Position numbers and translations under genes: made by a program. Below the pieces are notes generated by a model. The model searched no databases. It saw only the letters and a program-made list of their open reading frames with translations, and had not been told where the DNA came from. Of a stretch of DNA of 44,112 bases, positions 2,160-42,691 are shown in pieces (within the stretch, counting starts at the first letter, position 1; each line of letters starts with the position of its first letter). The stretch comes from a virus: the UHGV virus genome UHGV-0127376; one strand, written 5' to 3'.

Positions 2160-4844
2160 ATGCCTGTGATTCAACCCAATAGACAGGGGCTAAATGTCGG
2201 TGGCGTACAATTGCAGGCCAACGATGTTAGCTTGCCGTCAACGGTGAGTGAGGTATCTGTTGATACCTCCAAAGCAAAACGTCTAGCCGCCCTGTCTGGG
2301 TTTGTGCAGGACTTCGGCGTAGGCTTTGACGAGGCAGTAAAAGAGAACGCCGCAGCCGCCACAGTGCGCGGCGCGATGGATGCTCAGGGTGCGGTGGACG
2401 CGATGGCCTCCAAGGACGAGGCTGTACAGAAGCAGAACATCTTCGTACGTGAAGCCTACCAGGATGGCTACGTATCCGCTGCTGCATACGACTCGCTAGC
2501 CAAGTGGCGCACAGACAGTATCGCCCGGGCTAAGAAAGCTGCCGAGTCCGGGTTGACTGACGAGGAGTTCCAGCAGCAGGAGCAAGAGCACGTCCAGTCT
2601 ATGTCGGACAAGCTCGGTATGTATCTACCGGATATGTCCAAGCAGTCCGCTACCACCATACTGCAGCAGCTCCGTGCTACTAGCATGGCGAACTATACAG
2701 CCTTCCAGAAAGGTCGAGCTGCGTTTGCCCTGGCGCAGGCTGACCGTGCCCTAGACCGCGGCCTTAGCTCGTCCAGTGATGAGTTCTATCAGCGCCTACA
2801 AGCAGGGCAGGGTGCCGCTGCGCAGATGTCTATCAAGACCGGCTTAGACAGCATCCTGGCTGCTGAGCACCTGGATAAGAGCAAAAAGCTTGACCGGGCC
2901 AAGCAGTATTTGGTCAGCGTAGCGCAGCAGACGCAGGACCCGCTGGTAATCAACCAGCTGCAAGAAATGGCCACTAAGGAACTTGGTGTCAACTCCGTAG
3001 ATGTCAACGCGGCGCTATATCAGGAGTTCAAGCGTGCTGGTGCTCAGATTGAGACCCAAGCCCGTTTCGAAATCTCTGATGCAATCCAGTCCCTTGAAGG
3101 GCAGACCCCAGAGCAGCAGGAACAGACTATGGCGCATATTCGTAGTCGTGTCATTGAGCTGTCTGCATCTGATGTGCTCAGCGCTGGCACCAGTATGGAG
3201 TTCTGGAACAAGGCCCAGACCATCCGCGAGAAGGCAGCGGACACCCAGGCATTGCGCACAGCAATCACTGGGAATATGCCAAGCTCTACTTTAGCAGGCA
3301 TGTTCAAAGGGGACTTAGATAAGGCGCGTACTCAGCTGCTCAAGAGCTTTCCGGACACCCCGGAAGGTAACCTGCAGTTGCTGGCATACGGGAGCAACAG
3401 CAAGGATGCGTGGGCAGTCAACGAGGCGCACAAGCGTATGTCTTCGGACATGGCACGTACGCTGACTACGCTGGACCAGCTCGGTGAGGATGGCGAGGTT
3501 TCCCGCGAGAACGTCAACAGCATCAACTTGTGGGCACAGGCTTATAGCACCAGTACGGACTTAGGTAAGATGGCCCTGCTGTCTGAGGTCCCGTCCGAGT
3601 GGCAGGGGGTGGTGCAGAAAGCTATTGCACAAAACCCAAGCAATGCCAGCAATACTATCTTGGACGACCTGCGCCGCCAGGCGCGTAACAAGGCCAGTGG
3701 GCGCTACAGCAATATCCAGAGTAACCCCACGGACAAGATGGTAGACCCTAGCGGTACCAGCAACTGGTTCAGTTTCTTTGGCGATGCCGACGCTCAGCGC
3801 CAGGAAGCGCGCGCTGCTATGGAGGAGGAGTACCGTTATACGTACAGCCGCAACCCAGAATCTCTGGTGGGTAAAGATGCCGAGGACATCAACACGATGC
3901 TAAAGGGTAACATCCAAGCCCGTAAGCTAGAGCTGGAAATTGCCGGTACGCCGAGGCACGTGTATCTGCCTGCCGGAACCTCTCTGCAGTCTATCATGGG
4001 TGACTACAAGGGCGACCAGGAGCAGTTCAAGGCTACGCTGCAACAGCAGATTCAAAACCAAGTACAGGCTATCACTGACCCCAGCAACATGGAACGTGTA
4101 GTGGTGCAAGCCGCCACTGCGGGCAACGCAGGTCAGAACATGACCGTAACCGTGTTCGACAAGAAGGGCACATTCCAGACTATGTCTGTGAACCTTCGTG
4201 ACGTTCAGGCTACTGCACAGGCTGCGTATGATTCAGCACTGGCGGGTGCTATGAAGATTGGTAGTGAGCAAGTAGGGGTACGTCCCGCCACCTTCTATGA
4301 CCACGATAATGGGCGCGCTGTCAGCGTGCAGGTCAACGGTCGTAACGCGGTGGGGCTGGAACCATCGCTGTTTAGTGACATCCTCGCCACCACTATGAAG
4401 TTCGAAGGGTTCCGAGAAGGCAAGGGCAAGGGTAGCGTAGGCTTCGGTCTGCACGTTAACTCGGGCATGCCTGTCCCTCAGAAAGTAACCATTGACGACG
4501 GTATCAGTATCCTTAAATCCTCTATGGAGAGGCAGTACGTTCCGAACGTGCAGAAGCAACTCAAGGGGCAGGGTTTGAATGCCTCCGATGAGGCGTTAAA
4601 GGTTATGGTGGACCTGAACTATCACGGTGGTAACGGTAGCTCTGGTCCTGTAGCAGAGGCGATGGCACAGGTACGTAAGGCTGCCAAGTCCCCGGTGGGG
4701 GCGTATCAGTATCCTGTATCTGAGGCCCAGGGTAGGGCTTGGCAAGCGCTGAGGAATACCCCGGCGTACAAGCAGGCCCAACCTGAGCGTAAGAAGTACC
4801 TGGAACAAAACCTACGTGATTGGCTCTTTGAGGCAACACACTAA
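2160..4844 (+). CDS. Internal virion protein with C-terminal lysozyme-like domain
   Basis: 894 aa; SD AAGAGGA upstream; C-terminal segment KFEGFREGKGKGSVGFGLH ... VTIDDGISIL ... MVDLNYHGG resembles GH24 (T4-lysozyme-type) motifs; synteny. Confidence 0.6.
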   Translation: MPVIQPNRQGLNVGGVQLQANDVSLPSTVSEVSVDTSKAKRLAALSGFVQDFGVGFDEAVKENAAAATVRGAMDAQGAVDAMASKDEAVQKQNIFVREAYQDGYVSAAAYDSLAKWRTDSIARAKKAAESGLTDEEFQQQEQEHVQSMSDKLGMYLPDMSKQSATTILQQLRATSMANYTAFQKGRAAFALAQADRALDRGLSSSSDEFYQRLQAGQGAAAQMSIKTGLDSILAAEHLDKSKKLDRAKQYLVSVAQQTQDPLVINQLQEMATKELGVNSVDVNAALYQEFKRAGAQIETQARFEISDAIQSLEGQTPEQQEQTMAHIRSRVIELSASDVLSAGTSMEFWNKAQTIREKAADTQALRTAITGNMPSSTLAGMFKGDLDKARTQLLKSFPDTPEGNLQLLAYGSNSKDAWAVNEAHKRMSSDMARTLTTLDQLGEDGEVSRENVNSINLWAQAYSTSTDLGKMALLSEVPSEWQGVVQKAIAQNPSNASNTILDDLRRQARNKASGRYSNIQSNPTDKMVDPSGTSNWFSFFGDADAQRQEARAAMEEEYRYTYSRNPESLVGKDAEDINTMLKGNIQARKLELEIAGTPRHVYLPAGTSLQSIMGDYKGDQEQFKATLQQQIQNQVQAITDPSNMERVVVQAATAGNAGQNMTVTVFDKKGTFQTMSVNLRDVQATAQAAYDSALAGAMKIGSEQVGVRPATFYDHDNGRAVSVQVNGRNAVGLEPSLFSDILATTMKFEGFREGKGKGSVGFGLHVNSGMPVPQKVTIDDGISILKSSMERQYVPNVQKQLKGQGLNASDEALKVMVDLNYHGGNGSSGPVAEAMAQVRKAAKSPVGAYQYPVSEAQGRAWQALRNTPAYKQAQPERKKYLEQNLRDWLFEATH

Positions 4845-4894: not shown

Positions 4895-7800
4895 ATGGCT
4901 CAGTTTCTGAACCAAGAACCGAATCCACAGGAAAAGGATTCTGCTAAGGGCGCAACACTTAAACCTGCGCCTGAGCGCGTAGATTGGAACGATGCCGGAG
5001 ACAACGGCTTAAACGCACTGGAGCGTGCCTCCTTACTGGCGCAGGCCAAGACCCCAGCTACTACAGCCGGGGAGAGCTTTGCGTCTGGTATGGGTAACAG
5101 CATCATCGCCGCAGCTATCCGTAAGGCCTCTGCCCCGGCATTTGACCGGGACCAGAACTTTAACGCCAAGCAGACTCTGAGCAGCGATACCAGGGCTAAG
5201 CTGTATGCTCCGAATCAGGAAGAGATTGAGTACCTGCACGACTCTGTATCGGTCGAGGATTACAACTACCGCATGCAGCAGATGCTTGAGCAACGCAACC
5301 GTGACCGCTTAATGGCTGACAACACGGTAGCCGGGTTCGCGGGTATGTTGGTGGGTGATTCTCCGTTCATCCTGGCCCCGATGTCTGCCGCTGGTATTGC
5401 TGGCCGCGCAGGCTTAGCTGCACGGACTGCTATCCGCGCTGCTGACGTAGGCTCCGCATTCTATGCGCAGGACCAACTGGGCCAGTCTGCTGCGGTAACT
5501 GCACTGGTAGCGGGCGTAGCTGGGTTGGACCAGCTCTGGGATATGTCTAGGGCTGCTAAAGCTGCTGCTAAGGCTCGTACTGGGCGTGAGCCTATGTTCG
5601 ACCCAGAAGCGCCTACAACTCGTACAGCGAGGGACGCTAATGTTACAGGAGTAGGAGAGGGAGAGGAAATCCTTACTAAGACACTGGATGAAAGCATCCA
5701 AGTATCTAGAAACAATACCGCCTCCGTGAACATGAAAGCACAGCACGTAGTTCAGTTCTTGAAGAAGTCCGAACACTTAACAGCAGGCCAGAAGGCTATT
5801 CTGGACACGCTGGGCGATGCTGTAAATGACATTGATTTTAAACTGGTAGCAGGCTCCGCAAACCGCAGCCGCTACACTTACGCACAGCAAGATTTAGCTA
5901 AGCGTGGAGAGGTGTCTCTACGCGCACCTAAGCGAGCTAATGGCAGCACATGGACTACAGCAGGGGACGCACTGCGTGCTATGGATGCAGACACAAGCAG
6001 GGTAGCCGTGCACGAACTGATTCATGCCGCCACTGCGCGCGCCGTTGACAGTAACCCAGAGATTGCTAAGCGCCTGGATGAAGTGCGCGCTGTTATTGCA
6101 GCGGACTCCACCTTGACGCCGCGTATGCGGTATTACGCTAGTAATGTGCACGAGATGCTGGCAGGCTTAGGTGACAGCCCTGAGTGGGTTGAGCATCTGG
6201 CGCGGACGAAATCCCCAACCGGTAAGAGCATGCTCCGCCAACTGGGCGAGTACATCATGAATGCCCTGGGCATCAAGGCCAAAGGTTCTGCCTTGGAAGA
6301 TGTCTTGGATGCGTACGAGGACGCCGTTAAGTGGACAGCTAAGGATTATGCAGACCAAGCCCAGAGCTTCCGTAGTGAAGCCTTCCAGGACCTGGCGGGC
6401 AGCACTACCCTAAACGAGGCTAAGGGTGCCCAAGCTATGCTGGATGGCGCTAAGAAGAAGCTCTCTACTATGTTTGCCCTGTACGATAACATCGCTCAAG
6501 GCAATGAAGAATTGGCTAAACTGCTAGTGTCGGATGCGTCCGCAGTAGGCGGCCGTCGCCCGTCTGTAGTGGACTTCAAGCGCAACCTCACTTTGGAGAT
6601 GGACGCCAGCGCTAGCGTAGTGGAAGACGCTATCCTGGGCGCGTTGAAGGATAAGGGTGTAGGTTTCTCTGAGCGCTTCTTCCATCGTAGTAAGTTCCGC
6701 GCTGAGCGGGCTGCGCTGGAGGACCGCCTGAGCAAGTACCTGGATGCTGCCTATAGCGCTGACGTAAACGGTAGAGCTGTTCCTGTGCCGGATGCAGAGA
6801 TTGCCACACTGGTTGACGCCTACCGCCGCTCTGGCTGGGCTAGCAAGTGGCACGAGCATATGCTCAATGCCGGGCTAGTGGATGATGGTGCGTTGGTTAA
6901 ATCCGACTACTACTTCCCGCGTCAGTACAGCTACGACAAGATGCGTCAAGGTATCGCACAGGGTAACACTCTGGACGACTACCGCGCCCTGTTCCGGTCC
7001 GCCTTGCGGGACGTGTACCCGAGCATGGAATCAGAGGTAGTGCAGCGTGTAGCCAAGGAGATGGTTGACGGTATATACAATGGCCGTGCCGGACAGTCTG
7101 GCCCTATGTGGAAGCAGCTGATTAACGGTATGGGTAACGATGAGGTCGTTATGGCTATGCGTAGCGCCGGTGTAGAGGAGTCTGCAATCCAGAGCTTCCT
7201 GGCTGGCAACGTACGCGAATCCGGCAGCACATCCCCTGCGCGGAACCTGCGTCAGCGTACTCGGTTCAACATGGACAAAGAGTATCTGGTGAACGGTAAG
7301 AGCATGCGCATGCAGGACCTGATGGATACTGATGTAGCCAAGGTTATGCACGGGTACACTAACCGTATGTCTGGACGTGTAGGCATGGCCTATGCAGGCG
7401 TACAGGACCTGGGACAGCTCGCTAAGATGATTGATGAGTCCAAGCACGCACTGGCGGATTCCGCTAAGTGGGAGAAGACAATCAATGACACCATCGACTT
7501 TATCCTGGGTGGGGCTCCTGCTGACGCAGGGCAGCTTCCGGATTTGCTACGCGCAGCCGGGAACATGGCTAACGCCACCATGCTTAAGAACTCCGGGCTG
7601 TATCAGCTGACGGATACTGCGCTGGCTATGAAGGAGTTCGGCATGGCTAGAGTGCTGCGCAGTATGCGTGACCAGCCTTGGTTCAAGGAAGGTGCCGTAG
7701 CTATCAAGACTCCGGATATGGCTGCCCGTCTAGACACCGTGCTGCGTGGTAATATCCAGAAGGAGATGCGCTTCCGCTGGTTGAATACGTACGCCGACGA

Positions 7801-8593
7801 TAACCTGGACCTGACCCGTCAGGCCTCTTGGTTCAATGTAACCCAGAACGTTGGGCAGGCTGCGCGTCACGTCAACGGTATGAGCATGGTGCACCGGCTG
7901 CAGGTTAACCTGAACTCCGGCATTGTGGCGGATGAGCTTACCCAGATGTTCAAGGGTGATGCTGCGGCGTTTAAGCGTCTGGAGCGTTTCGGGCTTACCC
8001 GCGACGTTGCTGACCGTGCCATCGCTGCCAACAAAGCCAACCCGGGCGCCATGTTCCAGCCGGACCTGCAAATGCAAGTTGAGGTTGTAGGGACGCGTAT
8101 GATGGACTACCTGGTACAGCAGGTTCGTACTGGAGAGACCTCACACTTTGCACAGTTCAACCCTATCGGCAAAGTCATTGTAGGGTACCAGAGCTTCGCA
8201 CTGGCCGCCACTAACAAGATTCTGCGTAGGGAGCTGAGCGACGCTGGGTGGATTGGCGTAGCCCATATTATGGCGTATCAATTCCCGCTGATGCTACTGG
8301 CTACTATGGCTAAGCACGGTATGGATGGGAAGGACGTAGACACCCAGAAACTCATCGGTGAGTCCGTGATGGGTATGAGTGCCATTGGCGGTGTATCCTT
8401 ACTACAGGATATCTTCCTGGGGGATTCTCCCCGTCACTCATTGGCATCTATGGGTTACGTCACAGGACTACTTGGGGCTGTGCAGGACCTGGCTACCGGT
8501 AATATGGATATCAAGACCTTCACTAAGCAGGTGCCGTTAATCCAGGAATTCGCACCTACGCGAGCTATCATCAATAACTTCGGAGACGATTAA
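4895..8593 (+). CDS. Large internal virion / ejection protein (T7 gp16-like by size and position)
   Basis: 1232 aa ORF, SD TAGGAGA upstream, located between internal virion protein and tail fiber. Confidence 0.55.
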   Translation: MAQFLNQEPNPQEKDSAKGATLKPAPERVDWNDAGDNGLNALERASLLAQAKTPATTAGESFASGMGNSIIAAAIRKASAPAFDRDQNFNAKQTLSSDTRAKLYAPNQEEIEYLHDSVSVEDYNYRMQQMLEQRNRDRLMADNTVAGFAGMLVGDSPFILAPMSAAGIAGRAGLAARTAIRAADVGSAFYAQDQLGQSAAVTALVAGVAGLDQLWDMSRAAKAAAKARTGREPMFDPEAPTTRTARDANVTGVGEGEEILTKTLDESIQVSRNNTASVNMKAQHVVQFLKKSEHLTAGQKAILDTLGDAVNDIDFKLVAGSANRSRYTYAQQDLAKRGEVSLRAPKRANGSTWTTAGDALRAMDADTSRVAVHELIHAATARAVDSNPEIAKRLDEVRAVIAADSTLTPRMRYYASNVHEMLAGLGDSPEWVEHLARTKSPTGKSMLRQLGEYIMNALGIKAKGSALEDVLDAYEDAVKWTAKDYADQAQSFRSEAFQDLAGSTTLNEAKGAQAMLDGAKKKLSTMFALYDNIAQGNEELAKLLVSDASAVGGRRPSVVDFKRNLTLEMDASASVVEDAILGALKDKGVGFSERFFHRSKFRAERAALEDRLSKYLDAAYSADVNGRAVPVPDAEIATLVDAYRRSGWASKWHEHMLNAGLVDDGALVKSDYYFPRQYSYDKMRQGIAQGNTLDDYRALFRSALRDVYPSMESEVVQRVAKEMVDGIYNGRAGQSGPMWKQLINGMGNDEVVMAMRSAGVEESAIQSFLAGNVRESGSTSPARNLRQRTRFNMDKEYLVNGKSMRMQDLMDTDVAKVMHGYTNRMSGRVGMAYAGVQDLGQLAKMIDESKHALADSAKWEKTINDTIDFILGGAPADAGQLPDLLRAAGNMANATMLKNSGLYQLTDTALAMKEFGMARVLRSMRDQPWFKEGAVAIKTPDMAARLDTVLRGNIQKEMRFRWLNTYADDNLDLTRQASWFNVTQNVGQAARHVNGMSMVHRLQVNLNSGIVADELTQMFKGDAAAFKRLERFGLTRDVADRAIAANKANPGAMFQPDLQMQVEVVGTRMMDYLVQQVRTGETSHFAQFNPIGKVIVGYQSFALAATNKILRRELSDAGWIGVAHIMAYQFPLMLLATMAKHGMDGKDVDTQKLIGESVMGMSAIGGVSLLQDIFLGDSPRHSLASMGYVTGLLGAVQDLATGNMDIKTFTKQVPLIQEFAPTRAIINNFGDD
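5640..5656 (+). promoter_or_regulatory. Copy 1 of exact 17-mer ATGTTACAGGAGTAGGA, inside the gp16-like gene
   Basis: Identical 17-mer at 16659..16675 and 37846..37862. Confidence 0.25.
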
Positions 8594-15582: not shown

Positions 15583-16044
15583 ATGTCTATGAACATCAAA
15601 TATGACACAACATCCCCTAGCTGCTTGGTGTGGCTCAAGGGTAGGCGCTCCGGTGCTCCAGCGGGTACCCGCAACACTCGTGGCTACTGGGTGGTACAGG
15701 TATCTGGTAGAAAGATACAGGCACACCGCCTCATCTGGGAACTACACAACGGGCCTATTCCAGACGGATATGTGGTGGACCACATCAACCAAAACCCCGG
15801 TGACAACAGATTAGAGAACCTGCGCTTAGCTACGGTTAGCGAAAACAACTGTAACGCACGCAGGTCTAAGCGGGAACATCCTAGGGGTGTATACTACACT
15901 GGCACCTGCTGGCGCGGGGAGTTCTGGAAGGACGGTAAGCGTTACATGAAGAAGCACAGCTCCTACGAAGTTATCTGCAAGTGGGTACTAGAGAAACGTC
16001 AAGAGCAACACAAGGCCTTCACCCCGGGGCAGGTGTATATCTGA
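15583..16044 (+). CDS. HNH homing endonuclease
   Basis: Motif VDHINQNPGDNRLENLRLATVSENNCN (HNH_3/AP2-type); free-standing between tailspike and repeat region. Confidence 0.8.
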   Translation: MSMNIKYDTTSPSCLVWLKGRRSGAPAGTRNTRGYWVVQVSGRKIQAHRLIWELHNGPIPDGYVVDHINQNPGDNRLENLRLATVSENNCNARRSKREHPRGVYYTGTCWRGEFWKDGKRYMKKHSSYEVICKWVLEKRQEQHKAFTPGQVYI

Positions 16045-16405
16045 AACCAAAAATTATTATACTCGCCCTTGAGCCTCCCTCACCCTCAACGACGCCAATT
16101 GCCCCCATAGGGGGTGCCTAGCGCATAAAAGGAGGGGTGGGGTGGGTGCCTAGACGTCTAGACGGCCCTAGGGCGCTCTCTGAGGTGTGGAGCGCCACGG
16201 CAGCTAAGACCGTGGCTATAGCGGAAGCCTCAGAGGGCCTCAGTGGCTCCCTGCGCTGCGCTGGGGCTATCGCTAGTGCTGCCCCACGGCTTGGCCTGTG
16301 CGTGGCACTGAGTGGCTCCTGTGCGCTCTACGGGGCACTAGGGGCTATCCCTGTGCGCTCCCTGTGGGCCATAGGGGTGCGCTCTGCCTTGCTTATTTTG
16401 CGCGT

Positions 16406-16462: not shown

Positions 16463-16658
16463 GCTGTAGTGCGTCACGGTGCTATCCCTAGTATGCACTA
16501 GGCTATCCACTGGCTATCCCTAGTGCTTTACATTGTGCCGATTATATGCTACGCTGCGCGCTCCCCACTAGGGCGCACATCCTCACCCAACACTATCCCG
16601 GCGCTATCTCTTTGCTATCCCTTTGCTCTTACTTTCATTCGAAAGCTGTCATGAAATG

Positions 16659-16675
16659 ATGTTACAGGAGTAGGA
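16659..16675 (+). promoter_or_regulatory. Copy 2 of exact 17-mer ATGTTACAGGAGTAGGA (candidate phage-RNAP promoter or other regulatory site)
   Basis: Identical 17-mer also at 5640..5656 and 37846..37862. Confidence 0.3.
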
Positions 16676-16866: not shown

Positions 16867-17283
16867 GTGGCTAGAACATTTAAGATTGTGGTTGATAAGG
16901 AAGGTTATCCAGTGATTAATGGTGCTGGGCCTGAGTATGTGAATAAGCGAGGTAAGAGAGACTATAAGACTGTGGCGCTGCATAGGGCCGTGGTTATGGA
17001 TGCTCTGGGAATCACTAGCTACGGTTCTGGCTATCACGTACATCACTGTGACAGTAACCGCCTTAACTGTGACTTCAATAACCTGATACTGGTTAGCGCT
17101 GACACTCACCGGGCCATACACTTAGCACAGATTCAGGAAGGGAGATGCTTCACAAAGGATGAGTTATTGGCTAGTCCTGAGTACGATACTAACTGGCGAG
17201 AGTTCGACGTGACTTATGGGGACTACAATAGTTTACTGCACGCAGACCTTTGGGGGTCTGCTTACTCTTTTTGCTCCCAGTGA
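16867..17283 (+). CDS. HNH endonuclease
   Basis: Motif YHVHHCDSNRLNCDFNNLILVSADTHRAIH; GTG start with SD AAGGAG 9 nt upstream. Confidence 0.75.
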   Translation: MARTFKIVVDKEGYPVINGAGPEYVNKRGKRDYKTVALHRAVVMDALGITSYGSGYHVHHCDSNRLNCDFNNLILVSADTHRAIHLAQIQEGRCFTKDELLASPEYDTNWREFDVTYGDYNSLLHADLWGSAYSFCSQ

Positions 17284-17435: not shown

Positions 17436-17464
17436 TTGACACCGCGAAGAACATAAGCTAGATT
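17436..17464 (+). promoter_or_regulatory. sigma70-like promoter (TTGACA -17- TAGATT)
   Basis: Consensus -35 at 17436..17441, 17-nt spacer, -10 at 17459..17464; A-rich upstream. Confidence 0.5.
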
Positions 17465-18085: not shown

Positions 18086-18117
18086 AGCCTATAGCATCCT
18101 ACGGGGTGCTATGTGAA
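18086..18117 (+). promoter_or_regulatory. Conserved 32-bp hairpin element, copy 1 (stem 18091..18099 / 18104..18112)
   Basis: 29/32 identical to 18802..18833; 9-bp stem with 4-nt loop. Confidence 0.4.
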
Positions 18118-18801: not shown

Positions 18802-18833
18802 AGCCTATAGCGTCCTGCGGGGCGCTATGTGAA
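18802..18833 (+). promoter_or_regulatory. Conserved 32-bp hairpin element, copy 2 (stem 18807..18815 / 18820..18828)
   Basis: A-T pair in copy 1 replaced by G-C pair here (compensatory change). Confidence 0.4.
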
Positions 18834-21794: not shown

Positions 21795-22855
21795 TGTTCT
21801 TGAATCCGCACGGGATTGATATGCAGCTGCTCTTGCAGATACTGCAAACGCACCGGCCTAGCTGGGGTAGCACTAAGTGGTTCGAGCCGCTGCTTATGCA
21901 GTCGCTACAGGCGCTGGGTAGTGGTATGCACTACGTAAAGGACAAGCACGGGAACTACTTCGTGCTGGTGGGGGACTCAGAGCAAAGTGACGTAGCGTTT
22001 ACGTCTCATCTCGACACAGTGGCACGACCAACCAGCGCTGCGCCGGACGTCGGCTGCACTAACAAGGGCGTGCTGTTCGTAAAGAATCCGCAACAAGCTG
22101 ACTGCTTGGGCGCCGACTGCGGCGCCGGTATCTACCTGATGCTGGAGATGCTGCGGCGCGGCGTGCACGGACGCTACTGCTTCTTCGTGGATGAAGAGGT
22201 AGGCTGCGAGGGTAGCGCTGCATCGGTCAAGGATGACTCTGGATTTTGGACTGGGGTCAAGGCGATGATTAGCTTCGACCGCCGCGGCGACGGTATCATT
22301 ACGCATCAAAGGTATATGCGCTGCTGCTCTGACACCTTTGCCAAGACCCTAGCAGAGCGCCTGGGACGCACGGAGCAGCACTTGCAGAAGGGTGTTTATA
22401 CTGACTCGGCTGAGTTCGTTGGCATCATTCCTGAGTGCACCAACGTCGGTGTAGGGTACATGCACGAGCACACCCCGGATGAGGTGCTGGACCTGAACAT
22501 ACTGGGCCAGGTGCTTGAGCGGGTACTACAAGACGGCACGTTCTCGCACCTCCCTATTGAGCGGGACCCGGCAGTAGCAGAGCCAGACCTATGCCAGTGG
22601 CTCGCTGCATCGACGCTCAGTTTACGGCAGCCGTGGGATATGCCGCCGGACGAGGACCCGCAGTTACTGGCCGCGTTCCGGGAAGTATCGCAGCTTTCTA
22701 AACAACAACTGGTTAGCTGGGTACAGGAGAATCCAGAGAAGGCGGCGGAGTACATAATGGTGTTCTCCGATTACGGCTTTAAAGAAGAACTGATTGAACT
22801 AGGCACCCGAGTCGTAGAAGACTGGGGCGGATACGATAATATTGTGGAGGGTTGA
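21794..22855 (+). CDS. Putative Zn-metallopeptidase / amidohydrolase-like protein (M20/M28-type motif order)
   Basis: Ordered motifs SHLDTV, GADCGAG, DEEVGCEGS, SFDRRGDG, HEHTPDE resemble H-x-D ... D ... EE ... D ... H metal ligands of the M20/M28 fold; unverified. Confidence 0.4.
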   Translation: MFLNPHGIDMQLLLQILQTHRPSWGSTKWFEPLLMQSLQALGSGMHYVKDKHGNYFVLVGDSEQSDVAFTSHLDTVARPTSAAPDVGCTNKGVLFVKNPQQADCLGADCGAGIYLMLEMLRRGVHGRYCFFVDEEVGCEGSAASVKDDSGFWTGVKAMISFDRRGDGIITHQRYMRCCSDTFAKTLAERLGRTEQHLQKGVYTDSAEFVGIIPECTNVGVGYMHEHTPDEVLDLNILGQVLERVLQDGTFSHLPIERDPAVAEPDLCQWLAASTLSLRQPWDMPPDEDPQLLAAFREVSQLSKQQLVSWVQENPEKAAEYIMVFSDYGFKEELIELGTRVVEDWGGYDNIVEG

Positions 22856-23304: not shown

Positions 23305-24095
23305 TGGACCAGCCCTGGCTTAGAGCGTGCAAGCGCCTGGCCGTTGGGCAGAGGGCGCGCTTTCGGTGCTGCGGCAGGGACGCCGCCGGGGTGCTCTACA
23401 ATAACCCGGATGCCTGGGAATATTATTGCCACCGCTGCAAACAGGTGGGCAAGGAGCACAAGCAGTACCAGCGCATACAGTTACAGGAAGAGCCGAGGGT
23501 GCAGCCCTCTGCACCTGCAGATGCAATTTGCATTAGCCAAGCGCCTGCGGAAACGCAGAGTTTTCTTTACGGATTCCTGACCACAAAGGGAATCATGCCT
23601 GAAATGGTGGAGGATGCAGAATGGAGCAAAGAGAAACAGCGGATAATATTCCGTGTCGGAAGCGCTGCTCTGGGCCGTGCAGTGCATGCCCGACAGCAAC
23701 CGAAGTGGGTAATGTACGGCCAGCCAATGCCGTTCGCTGCCGCGGCACCTGCCGTAGCGCCGGATGTAGCTGCGGCCGCACCTCTAAAGGTCGTGCTCAC
23801 CGAGGACTATCTATCAGCGATCAAATATCAGCACGCGATTACGAACTACTCTGCAATGAACGTGCAGGCTATAGCTATGCTGGGTACTCGCTTGCCCGTG
23901 CAGTTAAGGGCGTGGCTGATACAGAACAAACCGACAGTGATACTGTCCCTGGATAATGACCAAGCGGGACACTCCGGCGCGGCCATGATACGGCGCGCGC
24001 TACGTCCCTTTATGTCGTGCCACGAAATCTACTACGACGGGGACCCAAAAGAGGCAACAATACAGGAGTTATTAGATGGTATTAGGCGCGTGTAA
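23304..24095 (+). CDS. DNA primase (zinc-binding + TOPRIM)
   Basis: N-terminal Cys motifs (RFRCCGRD ... YCHRCKQ) and TOPRIM-like VLTEDYLSA / ILSLDNDQAGHSGA. Confidence 0.8.
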   Translation: MDQPWLRACKRLAVGQRARFRCCGRDAAGVLYNNPDAWEYYCHRCKQVGKEHKQYQRIQLQEEPRVQPSAPADAICISQAPAETQSFLYGFLTTKGIMPEMVEDAEWSKEKQRIIFRVGSAALGRAVHARQQPKWVMYGQPMPFAAAAPAVAPDVAAAAPLKVVLTEDYLSAIKYQHAITNYSAMNVQAIAMLGTRLPVQLRAWLIQNKPTVILSLDNDQAGHSGAAMIRRALRPFMSCHEIYYDGDPKEATIQELLDGIRRV

Positions 24096-26290: not shown

Positions 26291-28686
26291 TGCACATAGA
26301 TTTAGAGGTTCAAAACCATGAATATTACGGCTCTAAAGCAAGCCCATACTGCCCTGACAACTATGTTGTTGAGTCAGCATGGCGTATCGACACGACACAG
26401 GCTGACGGTACTACCACTGTTGGCGCGACTCAATCGGTGCGCTTCAATTCAAGAGCTGATTTCTTGGCGGGAAACAGTGCAGCAGAAGGCTGCCGGTGGT
26501 TTCATATCCCCGAGGATTGCTGGCTTATTGTTGCGCACAACGCAGCCTATGAGATTTCTTGGTTTCTCACGTACCAGCGACAGCAGTTTGAAGCCTTCCT
26601 CAAGCGCGGCGGCAGGGTGTTCTGCACAATGCACGGTGAATACATCGCCTCGGACTTTCAGAGCATGTATCCGTCATTGGACGAGACGGCTCCTAAGTAC
26701 GGCGGTACGCACAAAGTAGACGGGGTTAAGCTTCTGTGGGAGCAGGGTGTGCTAACCTCCCAGATTGACCCGATGCTGCTACATGACTACCTGGTTAACG
26801 GGGACATCCCGAACACGGCCCTGTGCTTCTACGGCCAGTGCGCTACGTTCGCCCAGCGCAATCAGATGCAGTACGTGTGGGAGCGTATGGATGCCTTGCT
26901 GGCTTGGGCGTACTGCGAATGGTTCGGCCTGTTCGTGAATATGCCAATTGCACGCAAGAACCAGGAGGAGCAGGAGCAGCGCATCCGTGAGATTAAGCAG
27001 GAACTGCAGCAGTACATCCCGAAGGACTTGCCGGAGACGCTGGACTTCAATTTCGGGTCGGACTTTCATATGTCTGCACTGGTGTACGGCGGGCCTATAA
27101 AGTACCGCAAGAAGGTCCCCTATGACCCTCCGCAGTACGTCAAGGCCGACTACTATAAGTACGAGGACGAAGATGGTGCGCACACCTATATACCTGTACA
27201 CGACACGCACATGCAAGAACTTCAAACGGAAGGCGGATGGTGGCGTGTAGTGACATATCGTGCGGGTAAGAACAAGGGGCTCCCTAAAGTATTCCGCCTC
27301 GATACCGAGGAAGAGAAACTTAAATGGGAAGACGACCTTTACTTCTGCCCGGGCCTAGTGAACATCCAGGAGCTTCCGGAAGTTATCCGGGAGAAGTACG
27401 CAGAGCGCGGGGAGTTCCGACAGGCGCGCACCCTGCAGGATGGCACCCCTGTGTATAGCACCAGCACTGATGCAATGGAGGCGCTGGCTCGCCAAGGGTT
27501 CGAGTTCTGTAAGTTGGTGAACGAACTGGCGGCGCTGGAGAAGGATACCGGCACTTACTATTTGCGAGAAGTACTGGACGCAGAAGGTAATGTAAAAGAG
27601 CGGAAGGGGATGCTGCAGTATGTAATCCCGGAGCGTCCCGATGGTTCCGGCATCATTCACCACCGGCTGAATACTTGCGCCACCGTAACCGGGCGCTTGA
27701 GTAGCTCTAACCCGAACCTGCAGAACCTACCCCGCCCGGATGAGGATGGCGACGGTGTGGCTAAATCCAAGGTGAAGCAGGTGTTCACCAGTAGATTCGG
27801 GGACAACGGACGTATCACTGAGGTTGACTACTCGGCACTGGAAGTGGTTATGTCCTGTGTACACACGGGTGACAAGAAACTGCTGGGACTGCTGCAGAGT
27901 GGTACGGATATGCACTGTTACCGCCTAGCTTTCCGCGAGGGATTACCGTATGAAGAAGTATATGAGCGCTGCCACAACAAGAAGCACGAGCTGCATCCGC
28001 TTTGGAAGGCAATGCGTACAGGTATTAAGGCTCCTAGCTTTGCAGCCCAGTATGGCGCTACGGCTAAGGGGATTGCGTTTGCTACTGGATGTACGGTGGA
28101 ATTTGCACAGGCTTTCTTGGACAACGAGGCTGCGCTGTTCCCGCAAACAATTGGCTTCCGCGCTGTTGTCAAGGAAGAGGTAGAACGTACCGGTGCGGAG
28201 GGGCGCATGTACCGGGAGCAGGCTGACGACGGCAGCTACCGAATCTACCGCATTGGGACGTGGACCAGCCCAGCCGGTGCCCGCTACAGTTTCCGTCAGA
28301 AAGAGCAGTGGAAAGAGGTTGTGCCTGGGCAGCGTAAGCAGAAGGTAATGGACTACAAGGAAACAGAGATGGCTAACTACTGGTGCCAGGGGGAAGCATT
28401 CTTCCTGATGGCGGTAGCCGCCGGTATGGTTCTGCGTGCACTCCTGGCCCGTGACTGGTTCGACAATCAGGTGTGCCTGATTACGAACGTGCACGATGCG
28501 TTGTATCTGGACAGCGCCAACCCGGAGGTTGGACGTGAGGCGAGCCTGCTGGTTAAGCAGTGCATGGAGGATGCACCTAAGCGTATTCACCAGCTCTGGC
28601 CTAACTACGGCATCATTGGTGAGGTCCCGTTCCCAGCAGAGGCTGAGATGGGTACGAGTATGTACAGTAAGGAGAAGGTAGAATGA
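26272..28686 (+). CDS. DNA polymerase (family A, T7 gp5-like)
   Basis: Exo motif HIDLE near N-terminus; polymerase motifs TGRLSSSNPNLQNLP and NVHDALYLD; start may be ATG 26290 rather than TTG 26272. Confidence 0.9.
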   Translation: MSTTSIMHIDLEVQNHEYYGSKASPYCPDNYVVESAWRIDTTQADGTTTVGATQSVRFNSRADFLAGNSAAEGCRWFHIPEDCWLIVAHNAAYEISWFLTYQRQQFEAFLKRGGRVFCTMHGEYIASDFQSMYPSLDETAPKYGGTHKVDGVKLLWEQGVLTSQIDPMLLHDYLVNGDIPNTALCFYGQCATFAQRNQMQYVWERMDALLAWAYCEWFGLFVNMPIARKNQEEQEQRIREIKQELQQYIPKDLPETLDFNFGSDFHMSALVYGGPIKYRKKVPYDPPQYVKADYYKYEDEDGAHTYIPVHDTHMQELQTEGGWWRVVTYRAGKNKGLPKVFRLDTEEEKLKWEDDLYFCPGLVNIQELPEVIREKYAERGEFRQARTLQDGTPVYSTSTDAMEALARQGFEFCKLVNELAALEKDTGTYYLREVLDAEGNVKERKGMLQYVIPERPDGSGIIHHRLNTCATVTGRLSSSNPNLQNLPRPDEDGDGVAKSKVKQVFTSRFGDNGRITEVDYSALEVVMSCVHTGDKKLLGLLQSGTDMHCYRLAFREGLPYEEVYERCHNKKHELHPLWKAMRTGIKAPSFAAQYGATAKGIAFATGCTVEFAQAFLDNEAALFPQTIGFRAVVKEEVERTGAEGRMYREQADDGSYRIYRIGTWTSPAGARYSFRQKEQWKEVVPGQRKQKVMDYKETEMANYWCQGEAFFLMAVAAGMVLRALLARDWFDNQVCLITNVHDALYLDSANPEVGREASLLVKQCMEDAPKRIHQLWPNYGIIGEVPFPAEAEMGTSMYSKEKVE

Positions 28687-28904: not shown

Positions 28905-29065
28905 TGATAGGTGGACCCTTGGGTGGTGTAGGGGGTTAGGGTAGCATGGAAATACACTGGGGTCAACTAAATAATTAAATAAAATTATTTGTTGACTCTA
29001 GCTTGATTCTGTGATTCATAGAGAATTAATGTGATACGAGTAGGAACAACACAAGAGGGTACCGA

Positions 29066-29504
29066 ATGTCGATGTGTATTGACCACGGGTATAACAAATG
29101 CCTTAACAAGAACGGATACCGCCGGGCATGGTATAAGCCGACCAGGCGATTGGAGCTGCTGCATCGGGTGGTGTATGCTGAGCATAACGGGCTGGATATA
29201 AGGGCGCTGGCTGGCCTGTCTGTTAGACATACCTGCGATAACCCCAGGTGCATTAACCCTAAGCACTTAGTATTGGGTGGGAACGCATATGGATAATATG
29301 CGGGACCGTGCAGAGCGCGGAAGGAACCCAGATGTGCGTGGGGATAGGAACCCAAAAGCGCAGTTAACTTGGGATGCTGTGCAGGATATCAGGGATAACT
29401 ATATCCCATACAAGAAAGGTATGCGGCAACACTTTGCTAATAAGTACGGTGTAGGTGTACATGTAATTAGTGACGTAATAAGTAACAGGAGCTGGAATGC
29501 CTAA
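29066..29504 (+). pseudogene. HNH homing endonuclease (paralog family A) interrupted by a +1 frameshift in a G-run near 29276..29281
   Basis: ORF 29066..29296 (..VRHTCDNPRCINPKHLVLGG) and ORF 29277..29504 (GTHMDNMRDRAERGRN..) align in series with the intact paralogs (..HLIPGTPADNNKDRAVRGR..); removing one G restores a 146-aa protein. Confidence 0.6.
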
Positions 29505-32785: not shown

Positions 32786-33753
32786 TGATTATCAACGGGG
32801 TTGACTTGTCCCAGCTCGGGGAGCAGTTAGCTCCGCAGAACTCTGGGAAGATTCTGCTGTACGACGCGGATTTCACAGTTTATAAATCTGCTGCTACAGT
32901 GAAACGTTTGGATACCGCGATACGCCGCTTCTATCAGCTGGTGCTTGAGGACATGTTCCTGGTCGGCTGCTCAGAAGCAGTGGCGTATCTGACGCCTACG
33001 GGGTGTGCTAAGTGCCTGCGCTGGCACCTGCCTACGGCTAAGCCGTACCAAGGGAACCGCAATAAGCGTCAGGAGCTGCCACTCAAGGCACCGTTGAAGC
33101 GGCACCTGATTGAGAACCCGGACCAGTATTCTGAGCATGGCATACAAGTGGTAAGCAGTGACTACTTCGAGGCGGATGACCTGTTCATAATGGATTCGTA
33201 CAGCTTCGGGGACCGTGGAATCCTGATGTCTCAGGACAAGGACTCCTGGCTCAGCCCTATGGCCCGGTTCGATATCCCAACCGGAACCGTATGGCCTGCC
33301 TTGGATAACCCCTTCGGATGGATTAAGTGGGATGATACCCAGGCTATGCCGGTACGAGCGCATGGCACTAAGTTCTTCTGGTGGCAGATGCTAGCAGGAG
33401 ATGACGCAGATAACGTCAAAGGCATCACATTGCTTGATGGGAAGCTCTGTGGGAAGCGAACGGCCTTTGATGCTATCTACCCTATTACCTCAGAGCAGGA
33501 CGCCGCAGAATTCGTTGTAGCGGCTTACGCTCGAAACAACCAAGATGTACTCGCAGAGGCAGAATGCCTGTTCCTGCGGCGCTCCCCGTCAGATTCAGCG
33601 TACCTGTATCTGATGTCACTGTTGACTACTCCCAGTCTGCGTGACTGGGTGCATTCGCTGCACGAGTACCATAAACAGCATATACAGTGGATACAGGAGC
33701 ACCCAGACAATGGCGAAGATGTCTGCGAAGGAAATGAGCCTGCGGGCGATTGA
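32785..33753 (+). CDS. 5'-3' exonuclease (T7 gp6 / FEN-like)
   Basis: ILLYDADFTVYKSAAT, YFEADDLF, SQDKDSW and KGITLLDGK align with conserved acidic motifs of T7 gene 6 exonuclease. Confidence 0.8.
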   Translation: MIINGVDLSQLGEQLAPQNSGKILLYDADFTVYKSAATVKRLDTAIRRFYQLVLEDMFLVGCSEAVAYLTPTGCAKCLRWHLPTAKPYQGNRNKRQELPLKAPLKRHLIENPDQYSEHGIQVVSSDYFEADDLFIMDSYSFGDRGILMSQDKDSWLSPMARFDIPTGTVWPALDNPFGWIKWDDTQAMPVRAHGTKFFWWQMLAGDDADNVKGITLLDGKLCGKRTAFDAIYPITSEQDAAEFVVAAYARNNQDVLAEAECLFLRRSPSDSAYLYLMSLLTTPSLRDWVHSLHEYHKQHIQWIQEHPDNGEDVCEGNEPAGD

Positions 33754-35368: not shown

Positions 35369-37837
35369 ATGATTAGCGCCCTGAATACGGTTGTAGTACC
35401 AGAGGAAGCACTGGTGAAACGCCAGCTGGAGCTTGAAGAGACCTATAAGATTCGCGGAATCGAGCGGGCACGTAAGCTGATTACGGACGCATTGCAGAAC
35501 GGTGGGATTATGAACCTGCCGATGACGCAGCGTATGCTCACCTCGGCATATGAGGTGGCCGCCGCCGCTATCGATGAGATGCGAAATGTAAAAGCCCCGG
35601 GCATTGGCGGTAAGTACCGCCGGTTCCTGCGCTTAGTCCCCTTGGATGTCCTGACCACCCTGAGCCTATGCACAATGTTTGAGGCATTTAGCGTAGCTCC
35701 TGGCGAGTCCGCTAGCCGCCGCCAGACTGCACAGGCGGTAATGTCCGCGCTGGGCCGGAACGTACAATCGGAACTGCTGGCCCTGCAGTTACGCAACGTG
35801 GCTCCGGCGTACATGGACCGTGTGTACGAGTACCTTACGGAGCGTAAGACCAAGTCTCCCACGCACATCCTGCGTACGCTGCGGGCCAGTGCTGAGAACG
35901 TGCACTATGGGCACGAGCCATGGACCAACTCCCAGAATATCTCAGTAGGTCGGCTGCTATGTGCCGCGGTGTTTGAGACTGGCCTGTTCCAATGGAAGAA
36001 CTGTAGTGGGAACCTGAGCATGCTCTACCCGGCTGACGATGTTATGGAGGCCTTCCAGAAACTGGTAGAGTCCGCTGATACCGTAACCATGAAGCCGCCT
36101 ATGCTGGTGCCACCGGTACAGCACACCACTATGTGGGATGGCGGGTACCTTACCCCCATCGACAATCGCGGGACCTATCACAACTCGCACATCGACCGCG
36201 CGCGACTCCGTGAAGTAGCAGAAGCATTCAAGTCCGCGGACGGCATCAAAAAGGCGCTTAATAAGGCGCAGGAAACCCCATACCGTATTAATAAGCGCAT
36301 ACTGGAACTGGTGCAAGAAGCACGGGCCCTGGGTATTGGGGTGGGCATGCCCCGCTCAGTACCAGAGCCTAAACCGGAGTGGTACTTGGATGGAGTACCA
36401 AAAGAGAACTACACCGAAGAAGAACTGGACCGCTTCGGTGAGTGGAAGACGCGCATGTCCCTATGGTACAGCGCAGACCGTAAGCGTGTGTCACAACTAC
36501 GCAGCCTGTTGACCACGCTGGAAATGGCGGAGGAATTCAAAGATGAGAAAGCCCTGTACTTCCCGACTTGTGTGGACTGGCGCTACCGCCTGTACTTCAA
36601 GTCCTCGCTGCATCCCCAAGGTTCTGATTTGCAGAAAGCCCTTCTTGAATTCGGACGTGGCAAGCCTCTGGGAGAGCGCGGACTTTTCTGGCTTAAAGTG
36701 CACGTCGCCACTTGCTTTGGTTATGACAAAACCCTATTCGAAGACCGTGCAGCTTGGGTTGATGCGAACTATGCAGAGATTGAGAGGCTCGCGGATTCTC
36801 CTCTTGATGCCCCTGCTTTTTCCTCTGCGGATAGCCCCTGGTGCCTGCTGGCCGCCGCTATCGACTTGGTTAATGCGGTTCGTTCTGGATGCCCAGAAGA
36901 GCATATTAGCCGAATCCCAGTTGCTATGGACGCTACAAACTCAGGTGGACAGCATCTCTCAGCGCTCCTGAGAGACCCTGTGGGCGGACGCTTGACGAAC
37001 CTGTACTGGGAGGGTAATGATAAGAAAGCGGACCTGTACATGGACGTGAAGCGCCGTACGGACGAGAAGGTGATACTGGACCTGGACAAGGAGGATTTCG
37101 TTATCCAGAGCACGTACTGGAGAGAGAACGAAATCACCCGCAGCATGACCAAGCGCCCTAGTATGACCTACTTCTACAGCGCCACTGTGCGCAGCTGCAG
37201 CGACTACATCTTCGAAGGCGCTTGCGCTGAGGGGTACGAGGGTACTGAGACTAACAGTCTGTGGAACTTGTCATGCTACCTGGCTCCGCGTATGCGCACT
37301 GCTATCGAGGAGGCAAACCCAGCCGCAGCCGCAGTTATGGGGTACTTGCAGAACCTCGCTAGGCGTGTACCGGCAAGCCAGCATCTGCAGTGGTATACGC
37401 CGCTGGGTGGGCTCGTAATGAACCGCTACACGCAGCGTGAAGAAGTGCGCGTACGTATTGACTGCATGAACCTATCAGCGGTACTGGTACACAACCGGGA
37501 CTTCAAAACTTGCAACAAGCGCAAGGCAGCCTCCGGGATTGCCCCGAACTTTGTGCATAGCCTGGACAGTACGCACTTGATGATGGTGCTCTGCGCTGCG
37601 GAGGGTCTGGATATTGTGCCTATTCACGACTCGCTGGCTACTCACGCAGCTGACGTTGACGCTATGCATAGGCACATCCGTGAGCAGTTTGTGCGCCTGT
37701 ATGAAGAGAATGACCTGCTTGGCGACATTACTCGCGCAGCAGCAGCAGCCGGGGCAGACTTGACGGACCTGGACATGCCGGAAGTGGGCACTTTGGACAT
37801 CCGGCAAGTGCTAGAATCCCCGTTCTTCTTCTGCTAA
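35369..37837 (+). CDS. Single-subunit DNA-dependent RNA polymerase (T7-like)
   Basis: 822 aa; C-terminal catalytic motif PIHDSLATHAADVD (T7: HDSFGT); located at the end of the replication module. Confidence 0.9.
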   Translation: MISALNTVVVPEEALVKRQLELEETYKIRGIERARKLITDALQNGGIMNLPMTQRMLTSAYEVAAAAIDEMRNVKAPGIGGKYRRFLRLVPLDVLTTLSLCTMFEAFSVAPGESASRRQTAQAVMSALGRNVQSELLALQLRNVAPAYMDRVYEYLTERKTKSPTHILRTLRASAENVHYGHEPWTNSQNISVGRLLCAAVFETGLFQWKNCSGNLSMLYPADDVMEAFQKLVESADTVTMKPPMLVPPVQHTTMWDGGYLTPIDNRGTYHNSHIDRARLREVAEAFKSADGIKKALNKAQETPYRINKRILELVQEARALGIGVGMPRSVPEPKPEWYLDGVPKENYTEEELDRFGEWKTRMSLWYSADRKRVSQLRSLLTTLEMAEEFKDEKALYFPTCVDWRYRLYFKSSLHPQGSDLQKALLEFGRGKPLGERGLFWLKVHVATCFGYDKTLFEDRAAWVDANYAEIERLADSPLDAPAFSSADSPWCLLAAAIDLVNAVRSGCPEEHISRIPVAMDATNSGGQHLSALLRDPVGGRLTNLYWEGNDKKADLYMDVKRRTDEKVILDLDKEDFVIQSTYWRENEITRSMTKRPSMTYFYSATVRSCSDYIFEGACAEGYEGTETNSLWNLSCYLAPRMRTAIEEANPAAAAVMGYLQNLARRVPASQHLQWYTPLGGLVMNRYTQREEVRVRIDCMNLSAVLVHNRDFKTCNKRKAASGIAPNFVHSLDSTHLMMVLCAAEGLDIVPIHDSLATHAADVDAMHRHIREQFVRLYEENDLLGDITRAAAAAGADLTDLDMPEVGTLDIRQVLESPFFFC

Positions 37838-37845
37838 AAAATTTA

Positions 37846-37862
37846 ATGTTACAGGAGTAGGA
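37846..37862 (+). promoter_or_regulatory. Copy 3 of exact 17-mer ATGTTACAGGAGTAGGA, abutting the start codon of the first gene after RNAP
   Basis: Identical 17-mer at 5640..5656 and 16659..16675; here it also supplies the SD (AGGAG) for ATG 37863. Confidence 0.3.
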
Positions 37863-38303
37863 ATGAAGTTAAAACACACTAGTAAAACTTCCGACTACAC
37901 TCTCAGAGTTCTGTATAAGTCTGACGACATTACGGACGCAGTGAAGCAACTGCATGAACTGGGCCACGGCATTAGTCGGGGCCTGGCTCCAGAGCAGCAC
38001 TACTGGAGGGTGCTGGGAAGTATACTGGGTAAACAGTATATACTAGGAGTCTATGACTCCCAAGGCGACTTAGTCGGTGCTGTCAGCTACTACCCAGAGG
38101 CTGTAGAGGACTGTCATTACGTAGAGCCTGTGCTGTATACAGACTTCTTCGTATTGAAACCGGACAACGGCGCGGCAGTGTCTGTGATTATGCAAGGCCT
38201 GCGCGCAATAGCCAAATGCATGCGCGCTGGGCGTATAGCCATTAGCCGGAGTACATCGGATAACACGTACAAGACAACTTATCATTTAGTGAGGTCAGAA
38301 TGA
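37863..38303 (+). CDS. Hypothetical protein (first gene of late region)
   Basis: 146 aa ORF directly preceded by the 17-mer/SD. Confidence 0.55.
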   Translation: MKLKHTSKTSDYTLRVLYKSDDITDAVKQLHELGHGISRGLAPEQHYWRVLGSILGKQYILGVYDSQGDLVGAVSYYPEAVEDCHYVEPVLYTDFFVLKPDNGAAVSVIMQGLRAIAKCMRAGRIAISRSTSDNTYKTTYHLVRSE

Positions 38304-42267: not shown

Positions 42268-42316
42268 ACAGTTAACGGCAATTGAACCTGCCTAGTTCCG
42301 TTTGATGAGGAAACCT

Positions 42317-42649
42317 ATGAAAGATATCCGTAACATTATAACCGGTATGACCCGCATGGAGGCCATAACCCAAGGTGGTGTAGAGTACGGCACAGAGGTG
42401 TGGCACAAACGCTGCACTGGGGACAGTACAGCCAATGCTCTGCGCATCATCTCAGAGGCCATGTTAAAGCAGGCTGTACCTGTTAGGGTTGAGCAGTACG
42501 TAGTAAGCGGCACCCACACCCGGGAACCTAAGCACGTGTTTGATTTGTGCCGATATCTGGTGGATGTTATGGGTCTTCGGGGTTTTACGTTTAACGCAGC
42601 AGCTAGAACTGTTGAGTGTAACGTGTTCGAGCCTGTTAACAAACAGTAA
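42317..42649 (+). CDS. Hypothetical protein upstream of terminator
   Basis: 110 aa from ATG 42317 (SD GAGGA); followed directly by intrinsic terminator. Confidence 0.5.
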   Translation: MKDIRNIITGMTRMEAITQGGVEYGTEVWHKRCTGDSTANALRIISEAMLKQAVPVRVEQYVVSGTHTREPKHVFDLCRYLVDVMGLRGFTFNAAARTVECNVFEPVNKQ

Positions 42650-42654
42650 TACGC

Positions 42655-42691
42655 GCCCCTGGTGCCTTCGGGTGCCAGGGGCTTTTTTTTT
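42655..42691 (+). terminator. Rho-independent terminator (12-bp GC-rich stem, TTCG loop, T9 tract)
   Basis: GCCCCTGGTGCC TTCG GGTGCCAGGGGC followed by TTTTTTTTT; analogous position to T7 T-phi after the capsid gene. Confidence 0.75.

Follow-up and report, generated by a model that had tools for sequence, protein, structure and literature searches.

The closest described system is that of Klebsiella phage KP34, whose RNA polymerase (RNAP) recognizes a strong promoter with the sequence T(A/G)ATGTTACAGGAGTA, as defined by Lu et al. (2019, Front Microbiol 10:2487; PMC6834552). Purified KP34 RNAP transcribed a template consisting of the RNAP gene and the intergenic region that follows it, and the main 5' end was placed at nucleotide 22213 by 5'-RACE of the in vitro transcripts (PMC6834552). 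The promoter occurs in the KP34 genome in two versions, TAATGTTACAGGAGTA (S1) at 22197-22212 and 33721-33736 and TGATGTTACAGGAGTA (S2) at 475-490, which are similarly efficient in vitro (PMC6834552). Initiation takes place at the G right after the 16-mer, as determined by run-off transcription and 5'-RACE, and the upstream T(A/G) at -16/-15 is needed, the 14-nt common core alone being much weaker in vitro (PMC6834552). A weak promoter of unrelated sequence, ACTTTGGACATCCGTCAAGT (W), is located in the 3' end of the RNAP gene, and initiation from it is weak and heterogeneous in vitro (PMC6834552). The published validation of the KP34 promoters is in vitro only (PMC6834552), and our literature search found no in vivo map of transcription start sites for any Drulisvirus. 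The more recent PhageProm article (NAR 2025, PMC11880802) gives 467 predicted KP34-like promoters in 135 genomes. This class represents the same promoter family as the elements analyzed here, with about 3.5 promoters per genome in Drulisvirus-type genomes.

The repeated motif and its KP34 counterparts

The window, i.e., the whole stretch of DNA analyzed in this study, is the 44,112-nt virus genome UHGV-0127376. Megablast places it in the genus Drulisvirus (KP34-like Klebsiella podophages; Autographiviridae, Slopekvirinae), with about 250 matching GenBank records at identities of mostly 90-95%. It represents a whole genome in circularly permuted form, the first base corresponding to approximately coordinate 28084 of KP34. 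The counterpart of the 216-bp direct terminal repeat of KP34 is found at about 16077-16384, with only 77-88% identity and with indels. In this permuted assembly the terminal repeat is present as a single copy, and the physical ends of the phage are not fixed by sequence alone. [quoted passage not shown] (PMC6834552), are conserved. The ORF at 4895-8593 (1232 aa) is a homologue of KP34 gp48, a T7 gp16-like internal virion protein. For the metagenomic viral contig IMGVR_UViG_3300045988_001730 (43741 bp; loci L126 and L193), the RNAP and a fragment of gp48 are 100% identical to their counterparts in the window, and the contig probably represents the same phage or a nearly identical one.

The initial annotation of this genome had pointed to an exact 17-mer, ATGTTACAGGAGTAGGA, occurring three times and more often than expected by chance. 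We found the three copies at 5640-5656, 16659-16675 and 37846-37862, every one of them on the + strand. Up to three mismatches being allowed, a fourth match appears at 29029-29045 (three mismatches); under the same setting, dinucleotide-shuffled sequences contain 0.07 matches on average and none of 100 shuffles reaches four, which bears out the claim. Matches to a degenerate consensus with three to four mismatches include those at 23476, 30851 (- strand) and 43841 (- strand), all of which are intragenic. Alignment of the flanks revealed that the identity among the three exact copies takes in two more bases on the 5' side, giving T(A/G)AT, and stops after GGA, so that the extended copies read TAATGTTACAGGAGTA at 5638 and 37844 and TGATGTTACAGGAGTA at 16657. 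Judged by sequence, the functional unit is the 16-mer at these three places (Table 1), and the GGA that closes the 17-mer is the predicted transcript start. The 17-mer as originally delimited does not stand as the functional unit, since in vitro its 14-nt core performs much worse than the 16-mer, the upstream T(A/G) being needed (PMC6834552).

The three 16-mers are letter-for-letter identical to S1, S1 and S2 of KP34, with the same A/G variant at each syntenic position. The GGA at +1 to +3 is the same as in KP34 as well, and about 30 nt of flank are identical or near-identical at all three sites; for the copy behind the RNAP gene, the identity to KP34 includes the flanks. The three elements thus come without any difference to KP34, compared with one mismatch in the W homologue (Table 1). 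Among relatives, the W site carries from zero to more than three mismatches, and it is doubtful whether W is conserved as a promoter. Every sequence-level feature that defines the KP34 strong promoter class is found in the three copies, which would make them members of this class and not just similar sequences. We estimate a probability of roughly 95% that they are strong promoters of the phage's own T7-family ssRNAP. The earlier proposal of a phage RNAP promoter core is thereby upheld, given that the enclosing 16-mers are the validated KP34 S1 and S2 elements at three syntenic places (PMC6834552). The accompanying remark that the motif may be undescribed has to be withdrawn: it was described in 2019 (PMC6834552), the PhageProm predictions followed in 2025 (PMC11880802), and the finding of a KP34-type promoter is hence not new. 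Activity in this phage, use in vivo, the boundaries of the transcription units and the role of the left-end copy are what we infer from these sequence comparisons.

Table 1. Coordinates of the RNAP gene, the predicted promoters and the associated elements in the window.
Feature	Coordinates	Strand	Remarks
Predicted strong promoter S1, in gp48-like gene	5638-5653	+	Identical to KP34 33721-33736; predicted +1 = G 5654
Predicted strong promoter S2	16657-16672	+	Identical to KP34 475-490; predicted +1 = G 16673
Hairpin, 19 bp, AT-rich interior	28957-29001	+	Directly upstream of the 29027 candidate; conserved among relatives
Candidate variant-class promoter, TAATGTGATACGAGTA+GGA	29027-29045	+	Predicted +1 = G 29043
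ssRNAP gene, T7 family	35369-37837	+	822 aa; 97.4% identical to KP34 RNAP
W homologue, ACTTTGGACATCCGGCAAGT	37790-37809	+	In 3' end of RNAP gene; one mismatch (T to G) to KP34
Predicted strong promoter S1	37844-37859	+	Identical to KP34 22197-22212; predicted +1 = G 37860
Intrinsic-type terminator, strong	42655-42682	+	12-bp stem with 9 G-C pairs, then T9; after the capsid module

The genomic surroundings of the three copies are those given in the initial annotation. The 5640 copy is located in frame within the gp48/gp16-like ORF (codons AAT GTT ACA GGA GTA). The 16659 copy is non-coding and close to the genome end; it is located about 270 nt into the left terminal-repeat region, and the nearest start of an ORF is about 190 nt away. 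The last base of the 37846 copy adjoins the ATG (37863) with which the first ORF downstream of the RNAP gene begins. These positions bear on the possibility that the motif is a shared translation-initiation region, namely an AGGAG Shine-Dalgarno sequence with a conserved context before genes. The motif does contain AGGAG, and in the 37846 copy it is positioned 5 nt before the ATG, where it can act as Shine-Dalgarno sequence for the 37863 ORF, but only on read-through or W-initiated transcripts. However, this is the only copy with a proper Shine-Dalgarno distance to a start codon (5-10 nt), one of the other two being buried in an ORF of 1232 aa and the other far from any ORF start. A ribosome-binding site also leaves unexplained the exact identity over 16-19 nt, the need for T(A/G) in vitro and the covariation with the RNAP described below. 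The probability of this explanation is negligible in our view, in line with the earlier argument that the motif is not merely a shared ribosome-binding site.

The sites could also be promoters of the host sigma-70 RNA polymerase instead of the phage enzyme. TAATGT loosely resembles a -10 hexamer, a likeness with nothing specific to it, and a scan for the sigma-70-type consensus (-35/-10 with a spacing of 16-18 nt) gave no match at the three copies or at 29027. Moreover, KP34 RNAP alone suffices for transcription in vitro (PMC6834552), and a host promoter would not track residues of the phage RNAP. We assign next to no probability to a host origin of the activity and retain the reading as promoters of the phage RNAP.

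Conservation among relatives and covariation with the RNAP

The conservation statistics rest on loci selected through the RNAP and gp48 proteins. For the former, 65 IMG/VR loci were gathered via the RNAP protein, and not via the motif, and were combined with four whole GenBank genomes and the window. For the latter, 46 loci gathered via the gp48 protein yielded 41 unique sequences. A scan of IMG/VR for the exact 16-mer returned at least 120 stretches, many of them on short environmental contigs; this number is approximately at chance level for a collection that large and the stretches are selected by the motif itself, and they were left out of the conservation statistics.

Absence of the motif at syntenic positions in related phages had been named beforehand in the initial annotation as an outcome that speaks against a promoter. 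The motif is present at such positions: behind the RNAP gene, T[AG]A[TA]GTTAC[AC]GGAGTA is found in all 61 Drulisvirus sources with a readable RNAP gene and downstream flank. The post-RNAP site is located 4-6 nt past the RNAP stop codon, or 351-488 nt past it where an HNH gene is inserted, and the ATG of the downstream gene always adjoins the site, even with an HNH gene inserted. Among 67 promoter sites of the sampled Drulisvirus sources, the junction with the ATG reads GGAATG in 65 and GGGATG in the remaining 2. In the window, the transcript predicted from 37860 would start with GGAAUG and would place the AUG of ORF 37863-38303 after a leader of only 3 nt. Such a leader is unusual for an efficiently translated gene and counts against the promoter reading. 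The next Met of this first late ORF is residue 110, and no Pfam family was matched by the ORF.

The other two sites are conserved as well. The 19-nt promoter segment inside gp48 has a total entropy of 1.15 bits versus a mean of 5.45 and ranks 6 of 680 (41 unique sequences), and the third positions are invariant in five of the seven codons spanned by the internal copy (GTT, GGA, GTA, GGA, and GAG). The invariant synonymous positions and the low entropy together indicate a constraint at the DNA level beyond that on the protein. The left-end site is kept at the same place in phages KPV811, KMI6, and VKV295.

The sole common variable base of the promoter is the one at -7 (5647, 16666, and 37853 in the window), which is either A or C and which is synonymous (ACA/ACC) in the gp48-internal copy. 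The internal and the post-RNAP copy, 11.5 kb apart, carry the same -7 base in 42 out of 42 contigs (24 C/C, 18 A/A), and in whole genomes this base is shared by the left-end copy too. We found that two of the 173 variable columns in 61 RNAPs show perfect covariation with the -7 base, namely residue 704 (A or I) and residue 706 (L or R), and that residues 703 and 705 track this base almost perfectly; the next-best column has a mutual information of 0.54. Across the 61 genomes, SAVL at residues 703-706 goes with A at -7, and TIMR, apart from rare variants at 703 and 705, goes with C. The RNAP of the window has SAVL (codons 37475-37486). In the alignment of T7 and KP34 RNAPs, where residue equivalence is approximate given an overall identity of about 28% and a 5-residue gap in the specificity loop, residues 703-706 correspond to T7 Q758-I761 in the specificity-loop hairpin. 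[quoted passage not shown]

A-type and C-type RNAPs do not form two deep, separate clades. Their mean identity is 96.4% within types versus 95.7% between types, the nearest neighbour is of the opposite type for 7 of the 61 RNAPs, and near the specificity loop some cross-type pairs differ in the four residues alone. The covariation pattern is what a polymerase-promoter pair changing together would look like, and the SAVL/TIMR cassette at 703-706 looks like a natural specificity switch for the -7 base. The combination of SAVL/TIMR with A/C at -7 suggests a natural orthogonal polymerase-promoter pair. KP34 RNAP is under development as an in vitro transcription enzyme, which gives these comparative by-products a modest practical value.

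The same data bear on the explanation that the repeats are non-transcriptional DNA signals, serving packaging or replication or representing recombination hot spots or targets of homing endonucleases. One copy is indeed located near the genome end, HNH ORFs follow the 16657 and 29027 sites, and in relatives an HNH gene is found beside the post-RNAP site. Yet the HNH insertions vary between genomes while the motif is constant, the motif covaries with the specificity-loop region of the RNAP, and a near-identical RNAP transcribes identical sequences in vitro (PMC6834552). We consider a purely non-transcriptional signal very unlikely. By analogy with phiOL of T7, a replication or packaging role of the left-end copy would add to its promoter function and not replace it.

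Three HNH endonuclease ORFs (Pfam HNH_3) were identified in the window, at 15583-16044, 16867-17283, and 29066-29296, the latter two directly downstream of the 16657 and 29027 sites, respectively. The HNH gene after the left-end copy is absent in KP34, which, together with the circular permutation of the record, distinguishes the window from this phage. Relatives frequently have an HNH gene inserted in the interval from the RNAP gene to the post-RNAP promoter. Promoter or promoter-like junctions of this kind seem to be places where homing endonuclease genes cluster.

The candidate fourth promoter at 29027

The inexact fourth match belongs to a 19-mer starting at 29027 (Table 1). The surrounding intergenic block is conserved; it is preceded by the DNA-polymerase module and followed by a variable gene, and the rest of the DNA-metabolism genes as well as the RNAP gene are located further downstream. 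The 19-mer differs from S1 at -10, -8, and -6 only and keeps -16 to -11, -9, -7, -5 to -1, and +1 to +3. The predicted start at 29043 would be followed by the leader GGAACAACACAAGAGGG and then an ATG at 29066. The 19-mer is invariant in 55 of the 56 Drulisvirus loci that cover the site. The hairpin preceding it has a fold energy z-score of -3.2, and none of 200 shuffled sequences folds as well.

Sister genera have a promoter-like repeat directly after the RNAP gene, with a sequence that differs from the KP34 type. Candidate promoters of the form ATAGAGGTTGCACG-N4-G are located at 410, 3520, and 20739 in the Koutsourovirus phiKDA1 (locus L124), the first just inside the left terminal repeat and the last 27 nt after the RNAP gene. 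An uncultivated relative with 58% RNAP identity (locus L180) contains GACACGTTRTAGAG twice after the RNAP gene, its sites being found at 4417, 12448, and 12532. No clear multi-copy motif was found after the RNAP gene of the more distant Salmonella phage S.Kent 1-2-1 and Vibrio phage M9, and these two phages carry no weight for or against a promoter behind the DNA-polymerase gene. The intergenic region of phiKDA1 that is syntenic to the 29027 block (11638 in L124) comprises a hairpin followed by ATAGAAGTATCACG-AATA-GGACAACACAGGAG, which corresponds to the phage's own motif with three mismatches and then a leader nearly the same as that of the window. Similarly, at 4417 in L180, about 330 nt after the DNA-polymerase gene, a hairpin precedes a near-exact copy of the L180 motif. 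The arrangement of a hairpin and a promoter variant thus recurs in three genera, each with a genus-specific motif. As the site follows the promoter sequence of each genus, we favour its reading as a promoter used by the phage RNAP.

Two findings speak against this assignment. The base at -7 stays A even in genomes with a C-type RNAP and C-type strong promoters, and the conservation covers the whole block and not the 16-mer alone. In addition, the three central changes are expected to weaken recognition strongly if T7 rules apply, and the site, if it is a promoter, probably belongs to a weaker class. A host sigma-70 promoter at 29027 is a weak alternative: the best arrangement by eye, TTGATT-N18-TAATGT, is below the scan criteria, and the -10 position that pairs with a better -35 (TTGACT) is the least conserved part of the block. 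Weighing these points, we see even chances that 29027-29042 is a fourth, unreported promoter for the same RNAP, of a second, class II-like type that is possibly auto-amplifying. By analogy with T7 phi1.1A/B, the site could serve as an RNAP-primed replication origin. The sequence TAATGTGATACGAGTA occurs neither in PMC6834552 nor elsewhere in the literature searched, which covered the main text of PMC11880802, and the candidate may be new. If active, the variant promoter would make the transcription map of this group of phages complete.

A further degenerate relative of the motif had been noted before the gene at 29497. This sequence, TAACAGGAGCTGGA at 29483-29496, has 6 mismatches over 16 positions in the promoter register and was rejected as a promoter; it contains an AGGAG Shine-Dalgarno sequence 7 nt before the ATG at 29497.

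Proposed transcription layout and comparison with known systems

In the proposed mechanism, T(A/G)ATGTTACAGGAGTA at -16 to -1 would constitute the promoter element and transcription would start at the following G (5654, 16673, and 37860). If contacts follow the T7 pattern, the AT-rich recognition loop would contact T(A/G)AT, the specificity-loop hairpin would recognize the centre (about -12 to -5) through the major groove, and the strands would melt for initiation at AGTA. The reading of the centre by the specificity loop is supported by the covariation of the -7 base with the RNAP.

The RNAP would first be produced from early and middle mRNA transcribed by the host enzyme. Its post-RNAP promoter would then switch on the head and tail genes up to the terminator at 42655, which probably ends or attenuates the unit begun at 37860 and which is the counterpart of a terminator annotated in KP34 at 26623-26660. 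The gp48-internal promoter would re-initiate transcription for the tail fibre, terminase, lysis, and tailspike genes. The left-end copy lies between the terminal repeat and host-type early promoters (e.g., TTGACA-17-TAGATT at 17436) and would hold the position of phiOL, which in T7 likewise has the left terminal repeat on one side and the early promoters read by the host enzyme on the other. This copy may function in late read-through of the early region, or in replication or packaging. The three promoters, their start sites and the terminator provide a useful annotation for this Drulisvirus genome.

Two regions of the window contain further features. A segment of about 374 bp (42268-42641), situated between a small post-capsid ORF and the terminator, has no KP34 counterpart; it contains an ORF at 42302-42649 (115 aa, TTG start). 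Two copies of a 32-mer predicted by Eriksson et al. (2015) as a KP34 promoter are present at 18086-18117 and 18802-18833; the 32-mer was inactive as a promoter in vitro (Lu et al., 2019; PMC6834552). Each copy forms an 8-bp stem closed on an UNCG-type tetraloop (TAGCRTCC-TRCG-GGGYGCTA), and the copies differ in one stem pair, G-C being replaced by A-T; this compensatory change suggests that the early region forms a hairpin here, as structured RNA or as DNA.

Outside the KP34-like phages, a close comparison is offered by LUZ19. The initial annotation knew of no defined promoter consensus for phiKMV-like phages, a premise that is out of date: the consensus of LUZ19 and Phikmvvirus, GgtTATGTCACacACAnnGG, has been mapped by ONT-cappable-seq (Putzeys et al., 2024; PMC10914365), and these authors explicitly liken the LUZ19 layout to that of KP34. 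LUZ19 and the window share a low number of copies per genome and the location of sites directly after the RNAP gene and within the structural region (PMC10914365). They also share an ATGTyACA core and GG at the start, as aligned by eye in a register inferred here. The sequence outside the ATGTyACA core is different, the RNAP gene of LUZ19 is followed by two copies in tandem, and the LUZ19 copy in the early region is antisense (PMC10914365), whereas the left-end copy of the window is on the sense strand.

With T7, the window shares the enzyme family, a compact promoter of about 16-19 bp that begins with TAAT and ends at a +1 G, A/T-containing positions -4 to -1, a central part that would be read by the specificity loop, and a phiOL-like copy at the left end. 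The class III promoters of T7 and phiOL are well established (Dunn and Studier, 1983; Cheetham, Jeruzalmi and Steitz, 1999). Features general to the T7 family are found in the window as well, with several near-identical copies on the coding strand before late gene blocks and a coupling, observed in silico, between the -7 base and the RNAP. The T7 consensus, TAATACGACTCACTATAG, matches the 16-mer at only 6 of 16 positions in the best register, in which the shared TAAT is aligned, and the promoter specificity, as judged from this comparison, differs from that of the T7 promoter proper. T7 has 17 promoter copies, compared with three, or perhaps four, in the window. Finally, the RNAP gene of T7 belongs to the early region, whereas that of the window is located at the end of the DNA-metabolism region, leaving no T7-style class II set upstream of it, except possibly the site at 29027.
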